Part shown: positions 6,124-53,685 of the stretch, one piece after another
Position numbering within the stretch: position 1 is the stretch's first letter
Layout: each line of letters opens with the position of its first letter
Source of the DNA: Candidatus Doudnabacteria bacterium
GTDB taxonomy: Bacteria; Patescibacteriota; JAQUNI01
Assembly: GCA_041644975.1 (NCBI GenBank)
Contig: JBAZQX010000007.1
Coordinates: forward strand, 1,906 to 65,905
Direction of reading: 5' to 3'
Length of the DNA: 64,000 nucleotides
Translations under genes and position numbers: made by a program
The notes under the pieces: generated by a model
What the model was told of the DNA's origin: nothing
The model's input: only the letters and a program-made list of their open reading frames with translations
Databases searched by the model: none

Positions 6124-6273
6124 TCATTTTTGTCGCATAATATCTTTTAACAGAAGTATATGTGCGGGTTCTTGGGCGGCAAATTCTTTTAGCTCAACGA
6201 GTTGAGCTTCAATCGAAAGCACTTGTTGATCATCTTCCTCTGTAGATTTTCTTGCATAGATTAAGTATTTCAT
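6124..6273 (-). pseudogene. Truncated serine recombinase (resolvase/invertase N-terminal catalytic domain only, ~49 aa)
   Basis: MKYLIYARKSTEEDDQQVLSIEAQ matches the resolvase catalytic-serine motif (YxRxST..Q..SLxxQ). The ORF stops after ~49 aa. Confidence 0.5.
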
Positions 6274-6446
6274 ATTAATTTGATTAAAAAAATTCCTTTT
6301 CCCAGGACGAAACCGCTCATGGCTACGCCAGATCTTCAGACAACTGATTTTTTCGCCCAAAATCCCTTACAATTTAATCGCCGAGTCCGCCAATTCGGCG
6401 GATAAACTCCGCGAGGCGAACCCAAACTGCTTGCAAATTCCTTACT

Positions 6447-6466
6447 GGTGCCCGGGGCGGGACTCG
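6447..6466 (-). repeat. Partial duplicate of the tRNA-Leu 3' end (17 nt identical, followed by CCA): att-site-like direct repeat
   Basis: gtgcccggggcgggactcg here matches the tRNA-Leu 3' end at 6623-6640. In this copy the reverse complement ends ...CGAGTCCCGCCCCGGGCACCA. Confidence 0.55.
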
Positions 6467-6622
6467 CCCCGTCGCTAAAGCTCCTTGAAACCTTGCGGTT
6501 TCAATGCTTCCACATCGGGGAAACTACCGTTTCCCCGACCCCTTTCCCGGGTTCTCGTCCCTATTACTTTAAACCTTGTATTTTTGAAAAAAACAAACAG
6601 ACACAAAGCGATATCTTCTTTG

Positions 6623-6707
6623 TGCCCGGGGCGGGACTCGAACCCGCAAGGTCTCGCGACCACAAGATTTTAAGTCTTGCGTGTATACCAGTTCCACCAC
6701 CCGGGCA
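6623..6707 (-). tRNA. tRNA-Leu(TAA), class II with long variable arm
   Basis: The reverse complement folds as GCCCGGG acceptor, anticodon loop CTTAAAA, variable arm tggtcgcgagacc and T-arm GGGTTCGAGTCCC. CCA is not encoded. Confidence 0.85.
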
Positions 6708-6714
6708 AACCCTC

Positions 6715-6830
6715 CGTCGTTGCGAGGAGCGACCAAAAGGAGCGACGAAGCCCGCCCGCTCACAAGCTTCGCTTCAGGCGAGGCGGGCGGGCTTCGCTCG
6801 GGCTTTAAGGCCCGAGCTCGCAACGACAAA
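6715..6830. repeat. GC-rich palindromic repeat element (family B core CGCTTCAGGCGAGGCGGGCGGG inside a cgtcgttgcgagg...cctcgcaacgac inverted repeat)
   Basis: Inverted termini and a shared GC-rich core that recurs at six other sites in the window. Confidence 0.7.
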
Positions 6831-6867
6831 ATCATTTTGAGGCCAGGACGGGAATTGTCATGGCTTC

Positions 6868-6950
6868 GCCAGATCTGGCAGAGCCAGACACCCACGAATC
6901 ACGGTTTTGTCCCGCTACGCGGGATCTCGCGCAGCGAGACAGACCGTTAA
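6868..6950. repeat. Hairpin repeat (family D, TCCCGCTACGCGGGATCTCG) embedded in a partial duplicate of the tRNA-Cys anticodon/T-arm
   Basis: The minus strand reads ACGGTCTG[tctcgctgcgcgagatcccgcgtagcgggac]AAAACCGTGATTCGTGGGTG. This equals tRNA-Cys positions 27-53 with the hairpin inside the anticodon loop. Confidence 0.6.
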
Positions 6951-6957
6951 TCTTTTG

Positions 6958-7030
6958 AGGCCTAGGTGGGATTTGCACCCACGAATCACGGTTTTGCAGA
7001 CCGTTGCGTTAACTACTTCGCCACTAGGCC
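6958..7030 (-). tRNA. tRNA-Cys(GCA)
   Basis: GGCCTAG acceptor, anticodon loop CTGCAAA, T-arm GTGGGTGCAAATCCCAC. Length 73 nt. Confidence 0.85.
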
Positions 7031-7273
7031 ATATTCAATTTTCAGCAAATCCTTCTGTTGGTGAGTTTTATAGAATTTCTCCATTTCAATTGCCTCACTA
7101 CGGGTCGGAAATTCCTTATAACCTAACAACCGCCACGGACAATATGCTTTAGTTGATTTTACCTTACCGCTGTTATGTCGTTTAAATCTAACTTTCACAT
7201 TTTCCGTACTGCCTACATACAAATTATTATTTTTTAGGCTAAGTAAAAAATATACATAATACATAGAAATCAT
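7013..7273 (-). CDS. GIY-YIG nuclease family protein (small UPF0213/YhbQ-like)
   Basis: YYVYFLLSLKNNNLYVGST...RFKRHNSGKVKSTKAY...EAIEMEKFYK matches the GIY-YIG motifs. The 3' end overlaps the tRNA-Cys 5' end by 18 nt on the same strand. Confidence 0.8.
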   Translation of the reverse strand: MISMYYVYFLLSLKNNNLYVGSTENVKVRFKRHNSGKVKSTKAYCPWRLLGYKEFPTRSEAIEMEKFYKTHQQKDLLKIEYGLVAK

Positions 7274-7345
7274 GGTTTTATCCCGCTACGCGGGATCTCG
7301 TCATCAAGATCTGGCAAAGCCAGACAGAGCGAGACAGACTGTTGC
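7274..7345. repeat. Family D hairpin repeat, rearranged copy of the 6868-6950 modules
   Basis: Shares tcatgg, cccgctacgcgggatctcg, gatctggcaaagccagaca and gagcgagacagac with copy D1, in a different module order. Confidence 0.6.
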
Positions 7346-7486
7346 CTTACTACTTGCCTACCCGCCGAATAAAAAATAAAAGATGTCTCAAAGACATCTC
7401 CATTTTAGCATTTATACGGTTTTGGTCAAACGCGAAAATAGAATCATGAATCAAATTAAGAAGAATTAAGAATTCATTTCCCCTAA

Positions 7487-7547
7487 TTCTTAATTCCTGC
7501 CTGCCCGCCGAAGTCCGCCAAAGGCGGACGTAGGTGGGATTCCTAAT
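7487..7547. repeat. Family H palindromic element (ATTCCTGCCTGCCCGCCGAAG...CGTAGGTGGGATTC) flanked by gaattaagaatt-type AT-rich inverted arms
   Basis: Copies at 28150-28212 (inverted) and 49005-49090. Confidence 0.6.
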
Positions 7548-10895: not shown

Positions 10896-11231
10896 TGCCG
10901 GGGGAGAGAATCGGACTCTCGACACGATGATTTTCCATTGCTCTCTCGGATTTCTCCGAGGATTGGACTATCTCTTCTCCTCACCTAGAAATAACAAATT
11001 CTCTTTAGGTGAGGGGCTGGGCGCTTAATGCAGGATTATTATTGGGATTCACCCGCTAGTCTCTACACCTTCTCCTCTAATTAAACCCATAAAGGAGCTT
11101 GGCTCGGGATTACCATATCCCTTTGAATAAAAGGATTTAGGCTTCCCCGAATTCACCCAGTTTGCGCTTCCATATCGCTATGAAAGGGACCGAAAATTCA
11201 GTCATCTGCTCTACCACTGAGCTACCCCGGC
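10896..11231 (-). tRNA. tRNA-Phe(GAA) interrupted in the anticodon loop by a ~264-nt group I intron
   Basis: 5' exon GCCGGGGTAGCTCAGTGGTAGAGCAGATGACT; 3' exon GAAAATCATCGTGTCGAGAGTCCGATTCTCTCCCCCGGCA. Joined, they give a canonical Phe tRNA with GATGA/TCATC anticodon stem, loop CTGAAAA and A73. Confidence 0.7.
10936..11199 (-). ncRNA. Group I intron within tRNA-Phe (boundaries +/-3 nt because of GAA repeats at both junctions)
   Basis: Contains an R-like element (gtagAGACTAgcgg) and an S-like element (aagAGATAGTCCaatcc) that can pair as P7. The 5' exon ends in U and the intron ends in G. Confidence 0.6.
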
Positions 11232-18263: not shown

Positions 18264-18424
18264 ACTCAAGTCGTCAGTGGACTCAACGAGCACCACGGGC
18301 TTTTTTTGAAAAAATTAAAAAGGACCCAAATTTAAAATAAAAAAATTATAAAAAATTTCTTTCTGGCGGAGCCAGATACGCCTTGCTAGACGATATTGCG
18401 ACCTAAGAAGCAATTTCTCCTGTT

Positions 18425-22654: not shown

Positions 22655-22810
22655 AGTTTTATTTAATTAAATCATCAACCTTAACATCTAACGCTTTGGC
22701 GATTTTGTAAAATTCCTGCTGGTCCACCCCGTTAGAAAATTTATAAAATCTTCAACGGGTTTTTATAATATCAAAAAATAAAAATTATTCTTATGCCTTT
22801 ATTTGATTTT

Positions 22811-22882
22811 TCTAACGGGGTGGACCGAGTGGGAATTGAACCCACGACCTCCTCATTGCAAATGAGGCGTTCTACCACTGAA
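22811..22882 (-). tRNA. tRNA-Ala(TGC)
   Basis: GGGCCGG acceptor with the G3:U70 identity pair, anticodon loop TTTGCAA and T-arm GTGGGTTCAATTCCCAC. Confidence 0.85.
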
Positions 22883-22916
22883 CTACCGGCCCTTGGGATT
22901 TATTCTTGATAATTTT

Positions 22917-22985
22917 ATTAAAATCATTGTCTCGCTTTGCGAGATCCCGCGTAGCGGGACAAATGCGGCACTCTAGCCAACTGAG
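22917..22985 (-). pseudogene. tRNA-Ala-like 5' half (acceptor, D-arm, anticodon 5' stem and TTTG) fused to a family D hairpin element; no 3' half
   Basis: GGGCCGTTAGCTCAGTTGGCTAGAGTGCCGCATTTG, then tcccgctacgcgggatctcgcaaagcgaga, then CAATGA. Confidence 0.4.
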
Positions 22986-23039
22986 CTAACGGCCCAAATG
23001 TAAATTACAAATGTAGATACAAAAGAAAATAACAAATTT

Positions 23040-23089
23040 TGGTGAGGGGTTGCACGCCTGTGGCGCTCTACCAGCTAAGCTACGGGCCC
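23040..23089 (-). other. Atypical 50-nt tRNA-like sequence at the position expected for tRNA-Ile in a 16S-Ile-Ala arrangement (5' acceptor and D-arm, then a non-canonical remainder ending CCCTCACCA)
   Basis: GGGCCCGTAGCTTAGCTGGTAGAGCGCC, then ACAGGCGTGCAACCCCTCACCA. Acceptor halves do not pair. Confidence 0.3.
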
Positions 23090-23477
23090 GTTTATAAAAT
23101 TAAACACTCTGTCGCGCTCTCGCACGACCTCCTTGTGTCAAGCTTTCGCTTGACCTCCTTAATTCATTTCAAAATTCTTTGCTGTTATTATAACTAAAAA
23201 AGACCCTTTAAACAAGGTTCTTTTTTTATCCGCAAAGGAGCTTTCCTTTGGCAATTAAACAGTGATAGGAAACATCTTAGAATTTAAAACACATTTTGTT
23301 TTAAAACGCCGTGTTTTAAGTTAACCACTACCGTGTGGCTTTTTTAGCGTTTGTTTGATAACAGTATCCCTTGCGAGATACCGCGACAATATTTTTCTCC
23401 CTAGAAAGGAGGTGATCCATCGACAGCTTCCGCTACCGATGCCTTGTTACGACTTCGTCCTAATTACCGATCCTACC

Positions 23478-23945
23478 GTGGATCCACCAAAAGGCGGAAC
23501 TTCGGGTATTACCGGCTCTTCTGACGTGACGGGCGATTATCTTCTTATAAACGTAAGAATTGATGTTCCCACCCAGCGAGCGGATTTCCCGCACTAGGCG
23601 AGTTCTAATGCATTTTCTTCTTCATTAGAATGGCTCCTTTCCCCATACTCGGGGTATTATGAGCCAGCTGACTTCTGACGCTGCGTTAGTTTTATTATAT
23701 AACTCGATTGAGTTAAACCGCAACATCAGATCTCCCGGGGTCAGTTTAAAAACTTTTCCTAACATCCCAAAGAAGCTTTTATATAATTTTCCCTATGCTC
23801 ACCACCCTACCATAGGTCAATTAACTTCTTTAATTTTTGGGCTGCTATTTGTTTCCGGATCCTCTGCTAACATCCTCGCGGATGTTAACTATCCTTCAAC
23901 TACGCTCTAAACGAGATTAGAGGGACGGATTTTAACCGTCTGGTT
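23478..23945 (-). other. ~430-470-nt insertion in the 16S rRNA between the GTAC(A)C 1395 block and the CGCCCGTCA 1400 block
   Basis: The conserved blocks are ~490 nt apart here versus fewer than 100 in canonical 16S. No sense-strand ORF of 60 aa or more. Confidence 0.6.
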
Positions 23946-24443
23946 TTTAAACCTGCCCGGCGCAGATTTTGTGAGTACAAGACCTGGGAACGTATTCACC
24001 GCGACATGGCTGATTCGCGGTTACTAGCGATTCCGGCTTCATGAGGTCGAGTTGCAGACCTCAATCCGAACTGGGGGTGCTTTTGATGGGATTAGCTATA
24101 GCGTTACCGCGTCGCGTCCCATTGTTACACCCATTGTAGCACGTGTGTCGCCCAGGGCATCAAAGGCCATGCTGACTTGACGTCGTCCCCACCTTCCTCC
24201 GACTATCTGCCGGCAGTCTCGCGTGACATAGTAACACGCGACAGGGGTTGCGTTCATTCCCGGACTTAACCGAACATCTCACGACATGAACTGACGACAG
24301 CCATGCAGCACCTGATCCCAAGGTTCCCCCCATAAAAAATCCAATTTTTAATTTTAAATTTTTAATTGAATTCCTTATGGGGGCACATCTCAGTTTCCTA
24401 AGATCTCCTTGAGCGTCTTGCCCTGGTAAGGTTCCTCGCTTAC

Positions 24444-24477
<34 letters not shown>

Positions 24478-24489
24478 AGGTCCCCGTCT

Positions 24490-24521
<32 letters not shown>

Positions 24522-24954
24522 TCCCAGGCGGGGCACTTAACGCGTTAGCTTACGACACTGAAGGGGTCGAGCCTCCAATGCCTAGTGCCCATCGTTTACA
24601 GCGTGGACTACTGGGATATCTAACCCCATTCGCTCCCCACGCTTTCGTCCTATGAGCGTCAGAATCGTTCTAGTAAGCTGCCTTCGCTATTGGTGTTCCT
24701 GCCGATATTAACGCATATCACTACTACACCGGCAGTTCCGCTTACTTCTCCCGACCTCTAGTCTTGAAAGTATCCAACCCTTTCCCTTGGTTAAGCCAAG
24801 GTCTTTAAGGTTAGACTTTTCAGACCGCCTAGGGACGCTTTACGCCCAATAAATCCGGATAACGCTTGGACCACTCGAATTACCGCGACTGCTGGCACGA
24901 GTTTAGTCGGTCCTTATTCGTAGGGTACCTTCAAACGTGCCTCGCTACCGCTCG

Positions 24955-25200
24955 GCACTAAATATAAATTTACAATTTTTAATTTTAAATTTTAATTCAA
25001 ATCCAAATTTTAAAATTGATTAAAAATTTCCGCCTGAAGAGCGGATCGGCTCTTCGACTCTGAAGACTCATTAGAGTTCGTTCAGAGCCTGAACAACCTA
25101 AACGACCTAGGGCTGAAAAAATTTAGAATTAAAAATTTACAGAGTGCTGAACGTAAGTGAAGCACGTCTTATTCCCCTATAAAAGCAGTTTACACTGAAG
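24955..25200 (-). other. ~240-nt AT-rich insertion in the 16S rRNA between the 357 and 515 conserved blocks (V3 region)
   Basis: Spacing of ~400 nt versus ~160 nt in canonical 16S. Confidence 0.5.
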
Positions 25201-25743
25201 AACAGCTTCTTCCTGCACGCGGCGTCGCTCCTTCACCCTTTTGGGGCATTGAGGAAGATTCTCGACTGCAGCCTCCCGTAGGAGTCAGGGCAGTGTTTCA
25301 GTCCCCGTGTGCGAGGGCATCCTCTTAGACCTCGTAACCGTCATAGCCTTGGTGAGCCTTTACCCCACCAACTAGCTGATAGTCCGCAGGCCCTTCTTGA
25401 AGCGATAAATCATTTACCATAACTAATGAATAGCTATGGCACATCGGGAATTAGTCCGCCTTTCGGCGAATTATGCCCGTCTTCAAGGTAGGTTACCAAC
25501 GTGTTACTCACCCGTTTGCCACTGTCCGCCTAACTTTTCTTGCGAAAAGTTTGGCGGACCGTTGACTTGCATGCCTTATCCACGCCGCCAGCGTTCATCC
25601 TGAGCTAGGATCAAACTCTCAAAAAAGATAATCAGCAATTAGCTCATAAAAGCTAGATTACTAATTATATAAATAGACGTTCCTATCACTATTTAATTGT
25701 CAAAGTTCAAAAATATTTTTGCTCTTAAACTAGAGCATAATTT

Positions 25744-53642: not shown

Positions 53643-53685
53643 ACACTGTCTCGCTTCGCGAGATCTCGTAAAGCGATGATCATTT
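53643..53685. repeat. Family D-like hairpin (tgtctcgcttcgcgagatctcg)
   Basis: Resembles tgtctcgctgcgcgagatcccg of copies D1-D3. Confidence 0.45.

Follow-up and report, generated by a model that had tools for sequence, protein, structure and literature searches.

A GIY-YIG Nuclease Gene and Double Hairpins Lodged in Duplicated tRNA-Cys Sequence: A Candidate Homing-Type Cassette of Patescibacteria

Introduction

This report concerns the tRNA-Cys locus in a stretch of 64,000 nucleotides (nt), hereafter the window, from Candidatus Doudnabacteria bacterium, a member of the Patescibacteriota (assembly GCA_041644975.1, contig JBAZQX010000007.1, positions 1,906 to 65,905). The contig comes from ENA sample ERZ27249422. 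Read along the minus strand, the locus consists of a decayed 5' half of a tRNA-Cys gene (copy A), hairpin modules, a gene for a GIY-YIG nuclease, the intact tRNA-Cys, a second broken tRNA-Cys copy (copy B) and tRNA-Leu(TAA). Dozens of other Patescibacteria share this arrangement, which points to a selfish element, so far undescribed, that resides in tRNA anticodon loops and leaves the tRNA intact. The coordinates of the features are collected in Table 1. In the motifs given below, a slash outside brackets marks the break point.

The tRNA-Cys Locus

A preliminary description of the window, made from its letters alone, had reported an 86-amino acid (aa) GIY-YIG gene that overlaps the 5' end of tRNA-Cys by 18 nt, and the overlap is exactly that. 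The last 18 nt of the open reading frame (ORF) are tRNA-Cys positions 1-18, and its final six codons read GLVAK and stop. A start at the second ATG (7264), the position at which the homologues start, would shorten the product to 83 aa.

Copy A, which lies upstream of the gene, is a feature absent from the preliminary description. It comprises the acceptor strand, the D arm and the 5' strand of the anticodon stem, and ends at G34 in ...ACAGTCTG. The hairpin modules follow in its anticodon loop; the outer pair, TCTCG...CGAGA and TCCCGCGTAGCGGGA, is similar to that of copy B, and an extra module, TCTGGCTTTGCCAGA, is nested after TG within the loop of the first module. A segment of 33 nt near these hairpins (repeat family D1) is 94% identical to copy B (6897-6929). 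The shuffled hairpin copy formerly placed at 7274-7345 is present, not as a free-standing element but in the anticodon loop of copy A, where tRNA positions 35-48 follow it. Further upstream, at 7489-7545, we also note a second tRNA-Cys-like fragment, GGCGGG(C/T)AGGCA..., that is 83% identical to 7346-7369, together with AATCCCACCTA, which resembles the T arm and 3' acceptor of tRNA-Cys and adjoins a TCCGCCAAAGGCGGA hairpin.

The partial duplication downstream of the intact tRNA had been described as a repeat of positions 27-53 in which a 31-nt double hairpin replaces the anticodon C. The duplication of these positions stands. The insert, however, measures 30 nt, lies between G34 and C35 and replaces no base, and copy B does not end at position 53; it runs through a T-loop hairpin to the acceptor strand at 6841 and into a trailer, TCAAAATGATTTT (to 6828), that resembles the trailer of the intact tRNA-Cys, TCAAAA(T)GATT. 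As single-stranded DNA, the 30-nt anticodon insert folds at -13.7 kcal/mol (z = -4.4). The tRNA-like segments are not chance similarities. Modules of the 15-nt form TCNNGC-N3-GCNNGA number 14 in the window against 0.3 expected from shuffles, and an origin by chance or artefact is ruled out by these shuffles, by the exact repeats (at least 21 tRNA bases) and by the recurrence across independent assemblies.

The hairpin-bearing copies could be regarded as functional split or intron-containing tRNA genes, from whose RNA the inserts are removed, in that the inserts occupy D, anticodon and T loops, like the non-canonical introns of archaeal tRNAs, and the flanking tRNA segments are conserved up to 100%. 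We consider this very improbable. Copy A has neither a T arm nor a 3' acceptor, copy B has no positions 1-26, and an intact tRNA-Cys stands alongside. No group I intron fold is present at the locus. ARAGORN does not recognize the copies, and Rfam, at the gathering threshold or even at E ≤ 10, returns intact tRNAs and noise only, with no family over the hairpins or pseudo-copies.

Table 1. Features of the tRNA-Cys locus and related features elsewhere in the window
Feature	Coordinates	Strand	Remarks
Copy A, decayed orphan tRNA-Cys 5' half	7366..7335	minus	sequence and alignment
Hairpin modules in anticodon loop of copy A	7334..7281	minus	after CTG
Remnant of tRNA positions 35-48	7280..7268	minus	TAAAACCATGATT; holds first ATG of GIY-YIG ORF
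GIY-YIG nuclease gene, UPF0213/Slx1 type	7273..7013	minus	86 aa
Intact tRNA-Cys(GCA)	7030..6957	minus	ARAGORN; Rfam 65 bits; sole tRNA-Cys in window
Copy B, 5'-truncated tRNA-Cys with two hairpin inserts	6947..6841	minus	
Copy B, positions 27-34	6947..6940	minus	ACGGTCTG; ~9-11 nt past 3' end of intact tRNA
Copy B, 30-nt double hairpin	6939..6910	minus	TCTCGCTGCGCGAGA + TCCCGCGTAGCGGGA; exactly between G34 and C35
Copy B, positions 35-55	6909..6889	minus	21/21 bases identical to intact tRNA-Cys
Copy B, 31-nt T-loop double hairpin	6888..6858	minus	TCTGGCTCTGCCAGA + TCTGGCGAAGCCATGA; at GTG/CAA
Copy B, positions 56-73 (3' acceptor strand)	6857..6841	minus	CAATTCCCGTCCTGGCC; repeat family D3
tRNA-Leu(TAA), conserved downstream neighbour of cassette	6706..6622	minus	ARAGORN, Rfam; order common to most related loci
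Promoter-like site, TTGACC, 16 nt, TG-TAAAAT	7429..7402	minus	upstream of copy A; consensus match only, 2 in region against 1.4 expected
Terminator-like hairpin	7401..7379	minus	directly after promoter-like site
Orphan tRNA-Ala-like 5' half, 36 nt	22995..22960	minus	ends ...CATTTG; sequence unlike intact tRNA-Ala
tRNA-Ala relic, TTTG + two modules + CAATGATTT	22959..22917	minus	double hairpin at 22930-22959
Intact tRNA-Ala	22892..22819	minus	~24 nt downstream of relic
Solo double hairpin, 5' flank ...CACTG/	53649..53679	plus	without tRNA context
Solo single module, TCTGGCGGAGCCAGA	18362..18376	plus	AT-rich intergenic DNA

The Nuclease Protein

The ORF matches the GIY-YIG domain PF01541 with E = 1.7e-18 (67 bits against a cut-off of 22.6) over residues 4-74. 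Tyr8, Tyr19, Gly21, Arg29, His33, Asn34 and Glu65 are invariant across 28 homologues, and Tyr8, Tyr19, Arg29, His33 and Glu65 are taken to be the usual catalytic positions of the fold. A profile search against the sequences of the PDB gave 1ywl (UPF0213 protein EF2693, 3e-9), 1zg2 (BH0048, 4e-9) and SLX1 (7cq2, 4e-6), and a weak match to I-TevI (6e-4). The homologues are stand-alone proteins of 80-86 aa, whose nearest solved structures are UPF0213 proteins, followed by the nuclease domain of SLX1. Judged by these matches, the window protein falls in the UPF0213/Slx1-like clade of the GIY-YIG superfamily, and it looks active. Among homologues at 57-75% identity, most have the C-terminal residues YGLVAK(W), as encoded by the 5' end of tRNA-Cys.

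The catalytic domain spans the whole 86-aa protein and leaves no room for a DNA-binding domain. The nuclease probably recognizes a DNA structure, namely a stem-loop or cruciform with TG/C in the loop, rather than a long sequence. Slx1 enzymes are structure-specific, which suits a target defined by a DNA stem-loop.

Recurrence of the Architecture in Other Genomes

At least 566 relatives of the nuclease were confirmed, with one genome per species, and the best 80 were analysed. In 65 of the 80 loci, a tRNA-Cys(GCA) gene on the same strand begins near the end of the nuclease gene; in 30 of them the overlap is exactly 18 or 21 nt, and tRNA-Leu(TAA) usually comes next. By a rough estimate, not a computed one, chance alone would place a same-strand tRNA within 25 nt of the stop codon in ~0.1% of cases, for a random gene in a genome of ~1 Mb and ~45 tRNAs.

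The tRNA of each locus was compared with its own flanks, and windows located 1 kb further upstream served as controls. Under strict criteria, an orphan tRNA 5' half is found upstream of the ATG in 40 of 70 loci (17 of them near-perfect) and in none of the control windows. The orphans comprise positions 1 to 33 or 34, lie 35-50 nt 5' of the ATG and are in some cases identical to the resident tRNA at 33-34 of 34 positions; the break point always falls after G34. The sequence then continues with two 15-nt modules of the form TC-stem-N3-stem-GA, joined GA/TC, then CAAAAC, and then the ATG. A perfect 15+15 double hairpin occupies the orphan break in 39 loci. When the gene is taken as the reference, a double hairpin occurs just upstream of its start codon in 41 of 80 genomes (strict), versus 0 of 73 control windows. 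The association with the GIY-YIG gene, previously called speculative, is the strongest result of the analysis. The architecture recurs with an exact break point, and hairpin, gene and tRNA are linked in it; what had been viewed as a local rearrangement, with a partial duplication and a gene overlap, represents parts of one recurrent cassette.

The orphan copies keep just the inner two anticodon-stem pairs, which indicates that the orphan is not maintained as a folded anticodon arm. Downstream copies of the type of copy B, broken at 34/35 and 55/56, are present at 16 of 70 loci and have variable 5' ends.

The arrangement is not confined to tRNA-Cys. The nuclease gene stands in front of tRNA-Ser(GCT) in a like layout in L012, L056, L063 and L065, and in L068 it has an intact tRNA-Cys on one side and, on the other, a hairpin-bearing pseudo tRNA-Ile followed by the intact tRNA-Ile(GAT). 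At four loci in metagenome-assembled genomes (MAGs) from outside the Patescibacteria (L074, L075, L076, L078), the gene is situated 50-70 nt after a tRNA. Two of these, from MAGs labelled Chlorobiota/Bacteroidetes (L076, 1-220; L078, 2590-2800), contain a pseudo tRNA-Ser(TGA), with hairpin inserts of ~20 nt at 21/22 in the D loop and 36/37 in the anticodon loop, ahead of an intact tRNA-Ser that is followed by a terminator-like hairpin and a related GIY-YIG gene. In view of these two loci, the link between the nuclease and tRNA debris extends beyond Patescibacteria, with a different hairpin type.

The Double Hairpin as a Dispersed Repeat

A hairpin-first scan of metagenome contigs, restricted to the subtype TCTCGC-N3-GCGAGA-TCCCGC-N3-GCGGGA, gave at least 118 stretches, and at least 112 non-redundant copies are among the matches listed, to which the following counts refer. 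Twenty of the 112 copies (~18%) are located in tRNA-Cys loops by the nuclease gene, with flanks GGTCTG/CAAAAC. The other 92 lie outside tRNAs; their flanks share the consensus aaTTTG/(a/c)AAatt, an inverted repeat in its own right. An exact 7-nt flank repeat accompanies 10 of these 92 copies and none of the tRNA copies. In tRNA loops, the hairpins follow the TG of CTG/CAAA (Cys anticodon), GTG/CAAAT (Cys T-loop) and TTTG/CAAT (Ala anticodon). Given that 92 of the 112 listed copies lie outside tRNAs, the loops of tRNA-Cys, tRNA-Ala and tRNA-Ser look like chance fits to a TG/CAA-type preference within a stem-loop. The hairpin is a dispersed palindromic repeat, to all appearances insertion-competent, that prefers such sites in stem-loops.

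The proposal of the preliminary description that the hairpins target tRNA anticodon loops is borne out as to the precision of the loop sites but not as to tRNA specificity, and its suggested survey of hairpins and tRNA genes, when run from the hairpin side, returns both a tRNA-Cys share and a majority elsewhere. The related copy that it had reported near 53643-53685 was found, and has no tRNA context (Table 1).

Modules nested after TG in the loops of other modules are seen in copy A of the window and in L012. The stems co-vary, with 9 of 12 pairs changed on both sides, and slid controls collapse; the figure of 100% pairing arises by construction, as the hairpin set was chosen for perfect pairing. 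Loop 1 is TNC or TNT and loop 2 mostly GNA, which gives the element a two-fold DNA symmetry; the double hairpins of L002 and L007 are perfect palindromes of 30 nt. Such symmetry speaks for a role at the DNA level. The stems contain no G-U pairs in 444 cells, and the changes are mostly swaps of C-G to G-C, in a set selected for perfect pairing; the lack of G-U pairs is weak evidence that disfavours a role at the RNA level. In addition, the double hairpin of L089 (343-372) appears to be located in GC-rich, coding-like sequence, where its 30 nt would contribute ten in-frame codons. Rickettsia palindromic elements likewise add in-frame codons.

The dispersal of the hairpin raises the possibility that hairpin and gene are independent of each other. 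The hairpin would then be a repeat of the kind of miniature inverted-repeat transposable elements (MITEs) or repetitive extragenic palindromic (REP) sequences, moved by some other enzyme and gathering in dead tRNA copies because their anticodon and T loops match TG/CAA, whereas the gene would merely sit beside a hotspot of tRNA duplication. The 92 listed copies away from tRNAs and the nuclease gene, with a flank consensus of their own, agree with this, insertions in functional tRNAs would be purged so that survivors are met only in pseudo-copies, and the adjacent tRNA-Leu shows an ordinary integration scar with a recombinase fragment. Nevertheless, a hairpin-less orphan half upstream of the gene was never seen in ~60 lineages, and the linkage of hairpin to ATG is nearly universal. 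The orphans are 5' halves whose break falls exactly at the hairpin site, a pattern that integrase scars leave unexplained, and the conserved cassette unit contains no transposase or other candidate enzyme. We regard independence as unlikely.

A dense cluster of nested GC-rich hairpins between tRNA-Leu and copy B (6707-6830) belongs to a family other than the TC...GA modules. Its outer stem, GTCGTTGCGAG...CTCGCAACGAC, surrounds a perfect 14-bp inverted repeat, and related TCCGCC-N3-GGCGGA hairpins are found at 7514, 11283, 37286 and 49033.

Stacked Cassettes, Relics and Host Congruence

Stacked as well as decayed forms of the cassette are found. L116 and L130 contain, in succession, gene 1, tRNA positions 1-34, hairpin, CAAAAC leader, gene 2, intact tRNA, copy B and tRNA-Leu; the two proteins of each pair are about three-quarters identical by eye, and the orphan half is unlike the functional 5' half. 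A relic is seen in L084, where orphan, hairpin and intact tRNA are retained and the gene is reduced to its first and last few codons.

The window itself offers a comparable case at tRNA-Ala, so that several tRNAs have served as targets. The hairpin fused to a tRNA-Ala 5' half had been noticed before, with too short an extent, as the fragment reaches 22995 and its 5' half measures 36 nt. The sequence after its double hairpin, CAATGATTTTAAT, resembles the start of the GIY-YIG ORF. This fragment looks like an old cassette that has lost its gene, at the same stage as the L084 relic, and copy A would represent the decayed orphan stage, so that every stage in the life cycle of a selfish element would be seen. 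We also note a tRNA-like 5' fragment, GGGCCCGTAGCTTAGCTGGTAGAGCGCC..., upstream of the relic (23041-23089, minus strand), which is called by neither ARAGORN nor Rfam, and, at 22718-22830, the tRNA-Ala 3' end with its trailer, GGTCCACCCCGTTAGAAAA, of which an inverted copy lies ~100 nt downstream, giving a long AT-rich palindrome.

The mean protein identity is 0.61 within named host lineages versus 0.57 between them, and the nearest protein neighbour belongs to the same named lineage in 1 of 28 cases, for a short protein and with lineage names that are those of the submitters. Stacked units, relics and a protein similarity that is incongruent with the host lineage favour repeated invasion over simple vertical descent. 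Direct evidence of transfer, in the form of identical cassettes in unrelated flanks, was sought as well and not found, as all pairs of at least 85% DNA identity share their flanks too.

The alternative to invasion is a domesticated operon under vertical descent, in which a small structure-specific nuclease would have shared a transcript with tRNA-Cys and tRNA-Leu ever since early Patescibacteria, the orphan and hairpin would form a conserved 5' leader with a regulatory or stabilizing role, and the tRNA debris would stem from ancient duplications kept similar by gene conversion. All 80 loci sampled have an intact gene, in conserved order with tRNA-Cys and tRNA-Leu(TAA), and the distance from hairpin to start codon is fixed; the identity of orphan and functional halves could reflect gene conversion. 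Endonuclease genes of phage T4 are known to have upstream hairpins that act as translational regulators (PMC2988022). The incongruence just described speaks against this operon, however, and stacked diverged cassettes and gene-less relics would be unexpected in it, as would the same architecture at Ser, Ile and Ala tRNAs. The loop symmetry (TNC and GNA) and the ~90 unrelated sites listed argue for a mobile element at the DNA level over an RNA leader. On these grounds, the operon appears rather unlikely.

Proposed Mechanism

The reading that we prefer, at what we judge to be about even chances, is that the locus is a selfish cassette of homing type in the anticodon loop of tRNA-Cys, which keeps the tRNA functional. 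The mobile unit would consist of the 30-nt double hairpin, the short CAAAAC leader, the GIY-YIG gene and a copy of tRNA positions 1-34, and the last codons and stop of the gene are encoded by tRNA positions 1-18 or 1-21. Upon insertion at G34/C35, the 5' half supplied by the cassette would join the resident 3' half and rebuild an intact tRNA, while the displaced resident 5' half would be left upstream as an orphan and then decay. Copy B may be a further hairpin-disrupted copy of tRNA-Cys, either displaced resident sequence or a repair scar. The old tRNA promoter would yield one transcript with orphan, hairpin, gene and tRNA, and RNase P, by cutting where the tRNA begins, would deprive the gene of its stop codon and so keep expression of the nuclease low. 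The nuclease would make the break, and the unit would spread when the break is repaired from a copy that bears the cassette. The double hairpin, a dispersed palindromic mini-element that shares the TG/CAA preference, may be mobilized by the same nuclease.

A number of results weigh against this cassette. The rebuilt tRNA retains CTG/CAAA, and a nuclease cutting there would cut the host gene unless its target is otherwise defined. The 86-aa protein is devoid of the extended DNA-binding domain used by known GIY-YIG homing enzymes, most of the listed hairpin copies are far from any nuclease gene, and three loci (L029, L043, L077) have gene and tRNA but no orphan half. Searches seeded by the protein or the hairpin brought up occupied sites only, and no close relative in which this locus is free of the cassette; viral contigs (IMG/VR) contain no relatives of the nuclease, so a phage vector is not supported. 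In a hitch-hiking test, none of tRNA 5' half, 3' half and tRNA-Leu correlates with protein distance, because the tRNAs are too short and saturated. The idea that copies A and B arose when a single displaced gene was split does not hold as a general rule, since their acceptor strands are complementary in L116 but non-complementary in the window, L008 and L020. Lastly, the arrangement is widespread and its genes are uniformly intact, with which the vertical inheritance of a useful gene remains compatible.

A wider proposal, which we put forward tentatively and with more doubt than belief, is that the hairpins and the 86-aa nuclease make up a new bacterial mobile system, in which cutting at TG/C in stem-loops drives both the spread of the hairpin and the homing of the gene, and the copied tRNA 5' half renders the insertion harmless.

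If the cassette is what it appears to be, a selfish element resides at an essential single-copy tRNA in hundreds of species with tiny genomes, and mobile DNA can persist under extreme streamlining by bringing along an extra 5' half of the gene that it targets. The widespread, uncharacterized UPF0213 clade, bacterial relatives of Slx1, would gain a first biological context from it, and it would add a new palindromic repeat family that shapes the genomes of Patescibacteria. The cassette explains oddities of annotation such as genes that overlap tRNAs, '...GLVAK' tails and the many short contigs at the locus. Tool builders could also take an interest in a structure-guided nuclease of minimal size whose insertion site is defined.

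Other Features of the Window

Downstream of tRNA-Leu, a 26-nt copy of its 3' end (6441-6466, 88% identical) is accompanied by a 78-aa ORF (6124-6360) with a weak match to a resolvase N-terminal domain (E = 0.0012, below the Pfam cut-off), and 6124-6470 looks like the scar of a serine-recombinase element that integrated at tRNA-Leu. Several related loci (L045, L059, L062, L070, L073 and L077) likewise have copies of the tRNA-Leu 3' end downstream. Elsewhere, the 16S rRNA match (region 23405-25626) covers 1708 nt against a model of 1533 positions and hence includes insertions; just past the 16S 3' end there are a weak match to the 3' half of the small subunit (SSU) rRNA (23405-23900) and a sub-threshold group II intron domain (23634-23706). 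A group I intron was called at 10944-11209.

Comparison with Known Systems

The arrangement is undescribed in the literature searched, which covered GIY-YIG genes with tRNAs, UPF0213 and Patescibacteria topics, with subscription journals outside coverage. T4-like phages possess free-standing GIY-YIG homing genes, of which segB is located between tRNA genes (PMC2988022). As in the window, segB is a GIY-YIG gene among tRNA genes and outside introns; the Seg genes are thought to spread via break repair with flanking sequence, and their expression is damped by RNA structure or processing. Seg proteins, of roughly 200 aa or more, have a DNA-binding domain, in contrast to the window protein, which is an 86-aa catalytic domain alone and of the Slx1/UPF0213 clade. 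Moreover, segB is intergenic, whereas the cassette lies inside an anticodon loop with the tRNA 5' half duplicated, and its host is cellular (Patescibacteria) rather than a phage, with no viral relatives in IMG/VR.

Mobile endonuclease ORFs of fungal mitochondria carry a replacement piece of their target gene, and the displaced piece stays behind as a pseudogene. The likeness to the cassette comprises an endonuclease gene with a replacement target piece, a target that remains functional, a displaced pseudogene, and short mobile elements of two adjacent hairpins in these genomes; the difference is that the 3' ends of protein-coding genes in organelles are involved there, as opposed to a tRNA 5' half here. 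The gene hybrids that such ORFs create and the double-hairpin elements of Allomyces, which are likened to the hairpins of the window by form, are both cited in PMC3787672.

The modules share with REP sequences, bacterial interspersed mosaic elements (BIMEs) and MITEs the character of short GC-rich imperfect palindromes that are dispersed, modular and nesting and have a preferred flank. They differ in that the only linked enzyme is a GIY-YIG nuclease, with no REP-associated tyrosine transposase (RAYT) or IS200-type transposase, and in their fixed 15-nt TC-stem-N3-stem-GA units, arranged head to head, and precise tRNA-loop sites. Genomic islands inserted by integrases also target tRNAs, supply a replacement segment and leave the displaced segment as a direct repeat. 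In such islands the duplicated part is the 3' end of the tRNA, and the enzyme is a tyrosine or serine recombinase. In the cassette, of only ~0.35 kb, the 5' half (positions 1-34) is duplicated and the nuclease is the sole protein encoded; the resolvase fragment at 6124-6360 is part of the tRNA-Leu scar. The best reading of the locus is a new form of homing-type selfish DNA to which a new family of palindromic repeats is coupled, and the cassette is set apart from these known systems by its minimal Slx1-type enzyme, the duplication of the tRNA 5' half, the site in the anticodon loop and the Patescibacteria-wide distribution.

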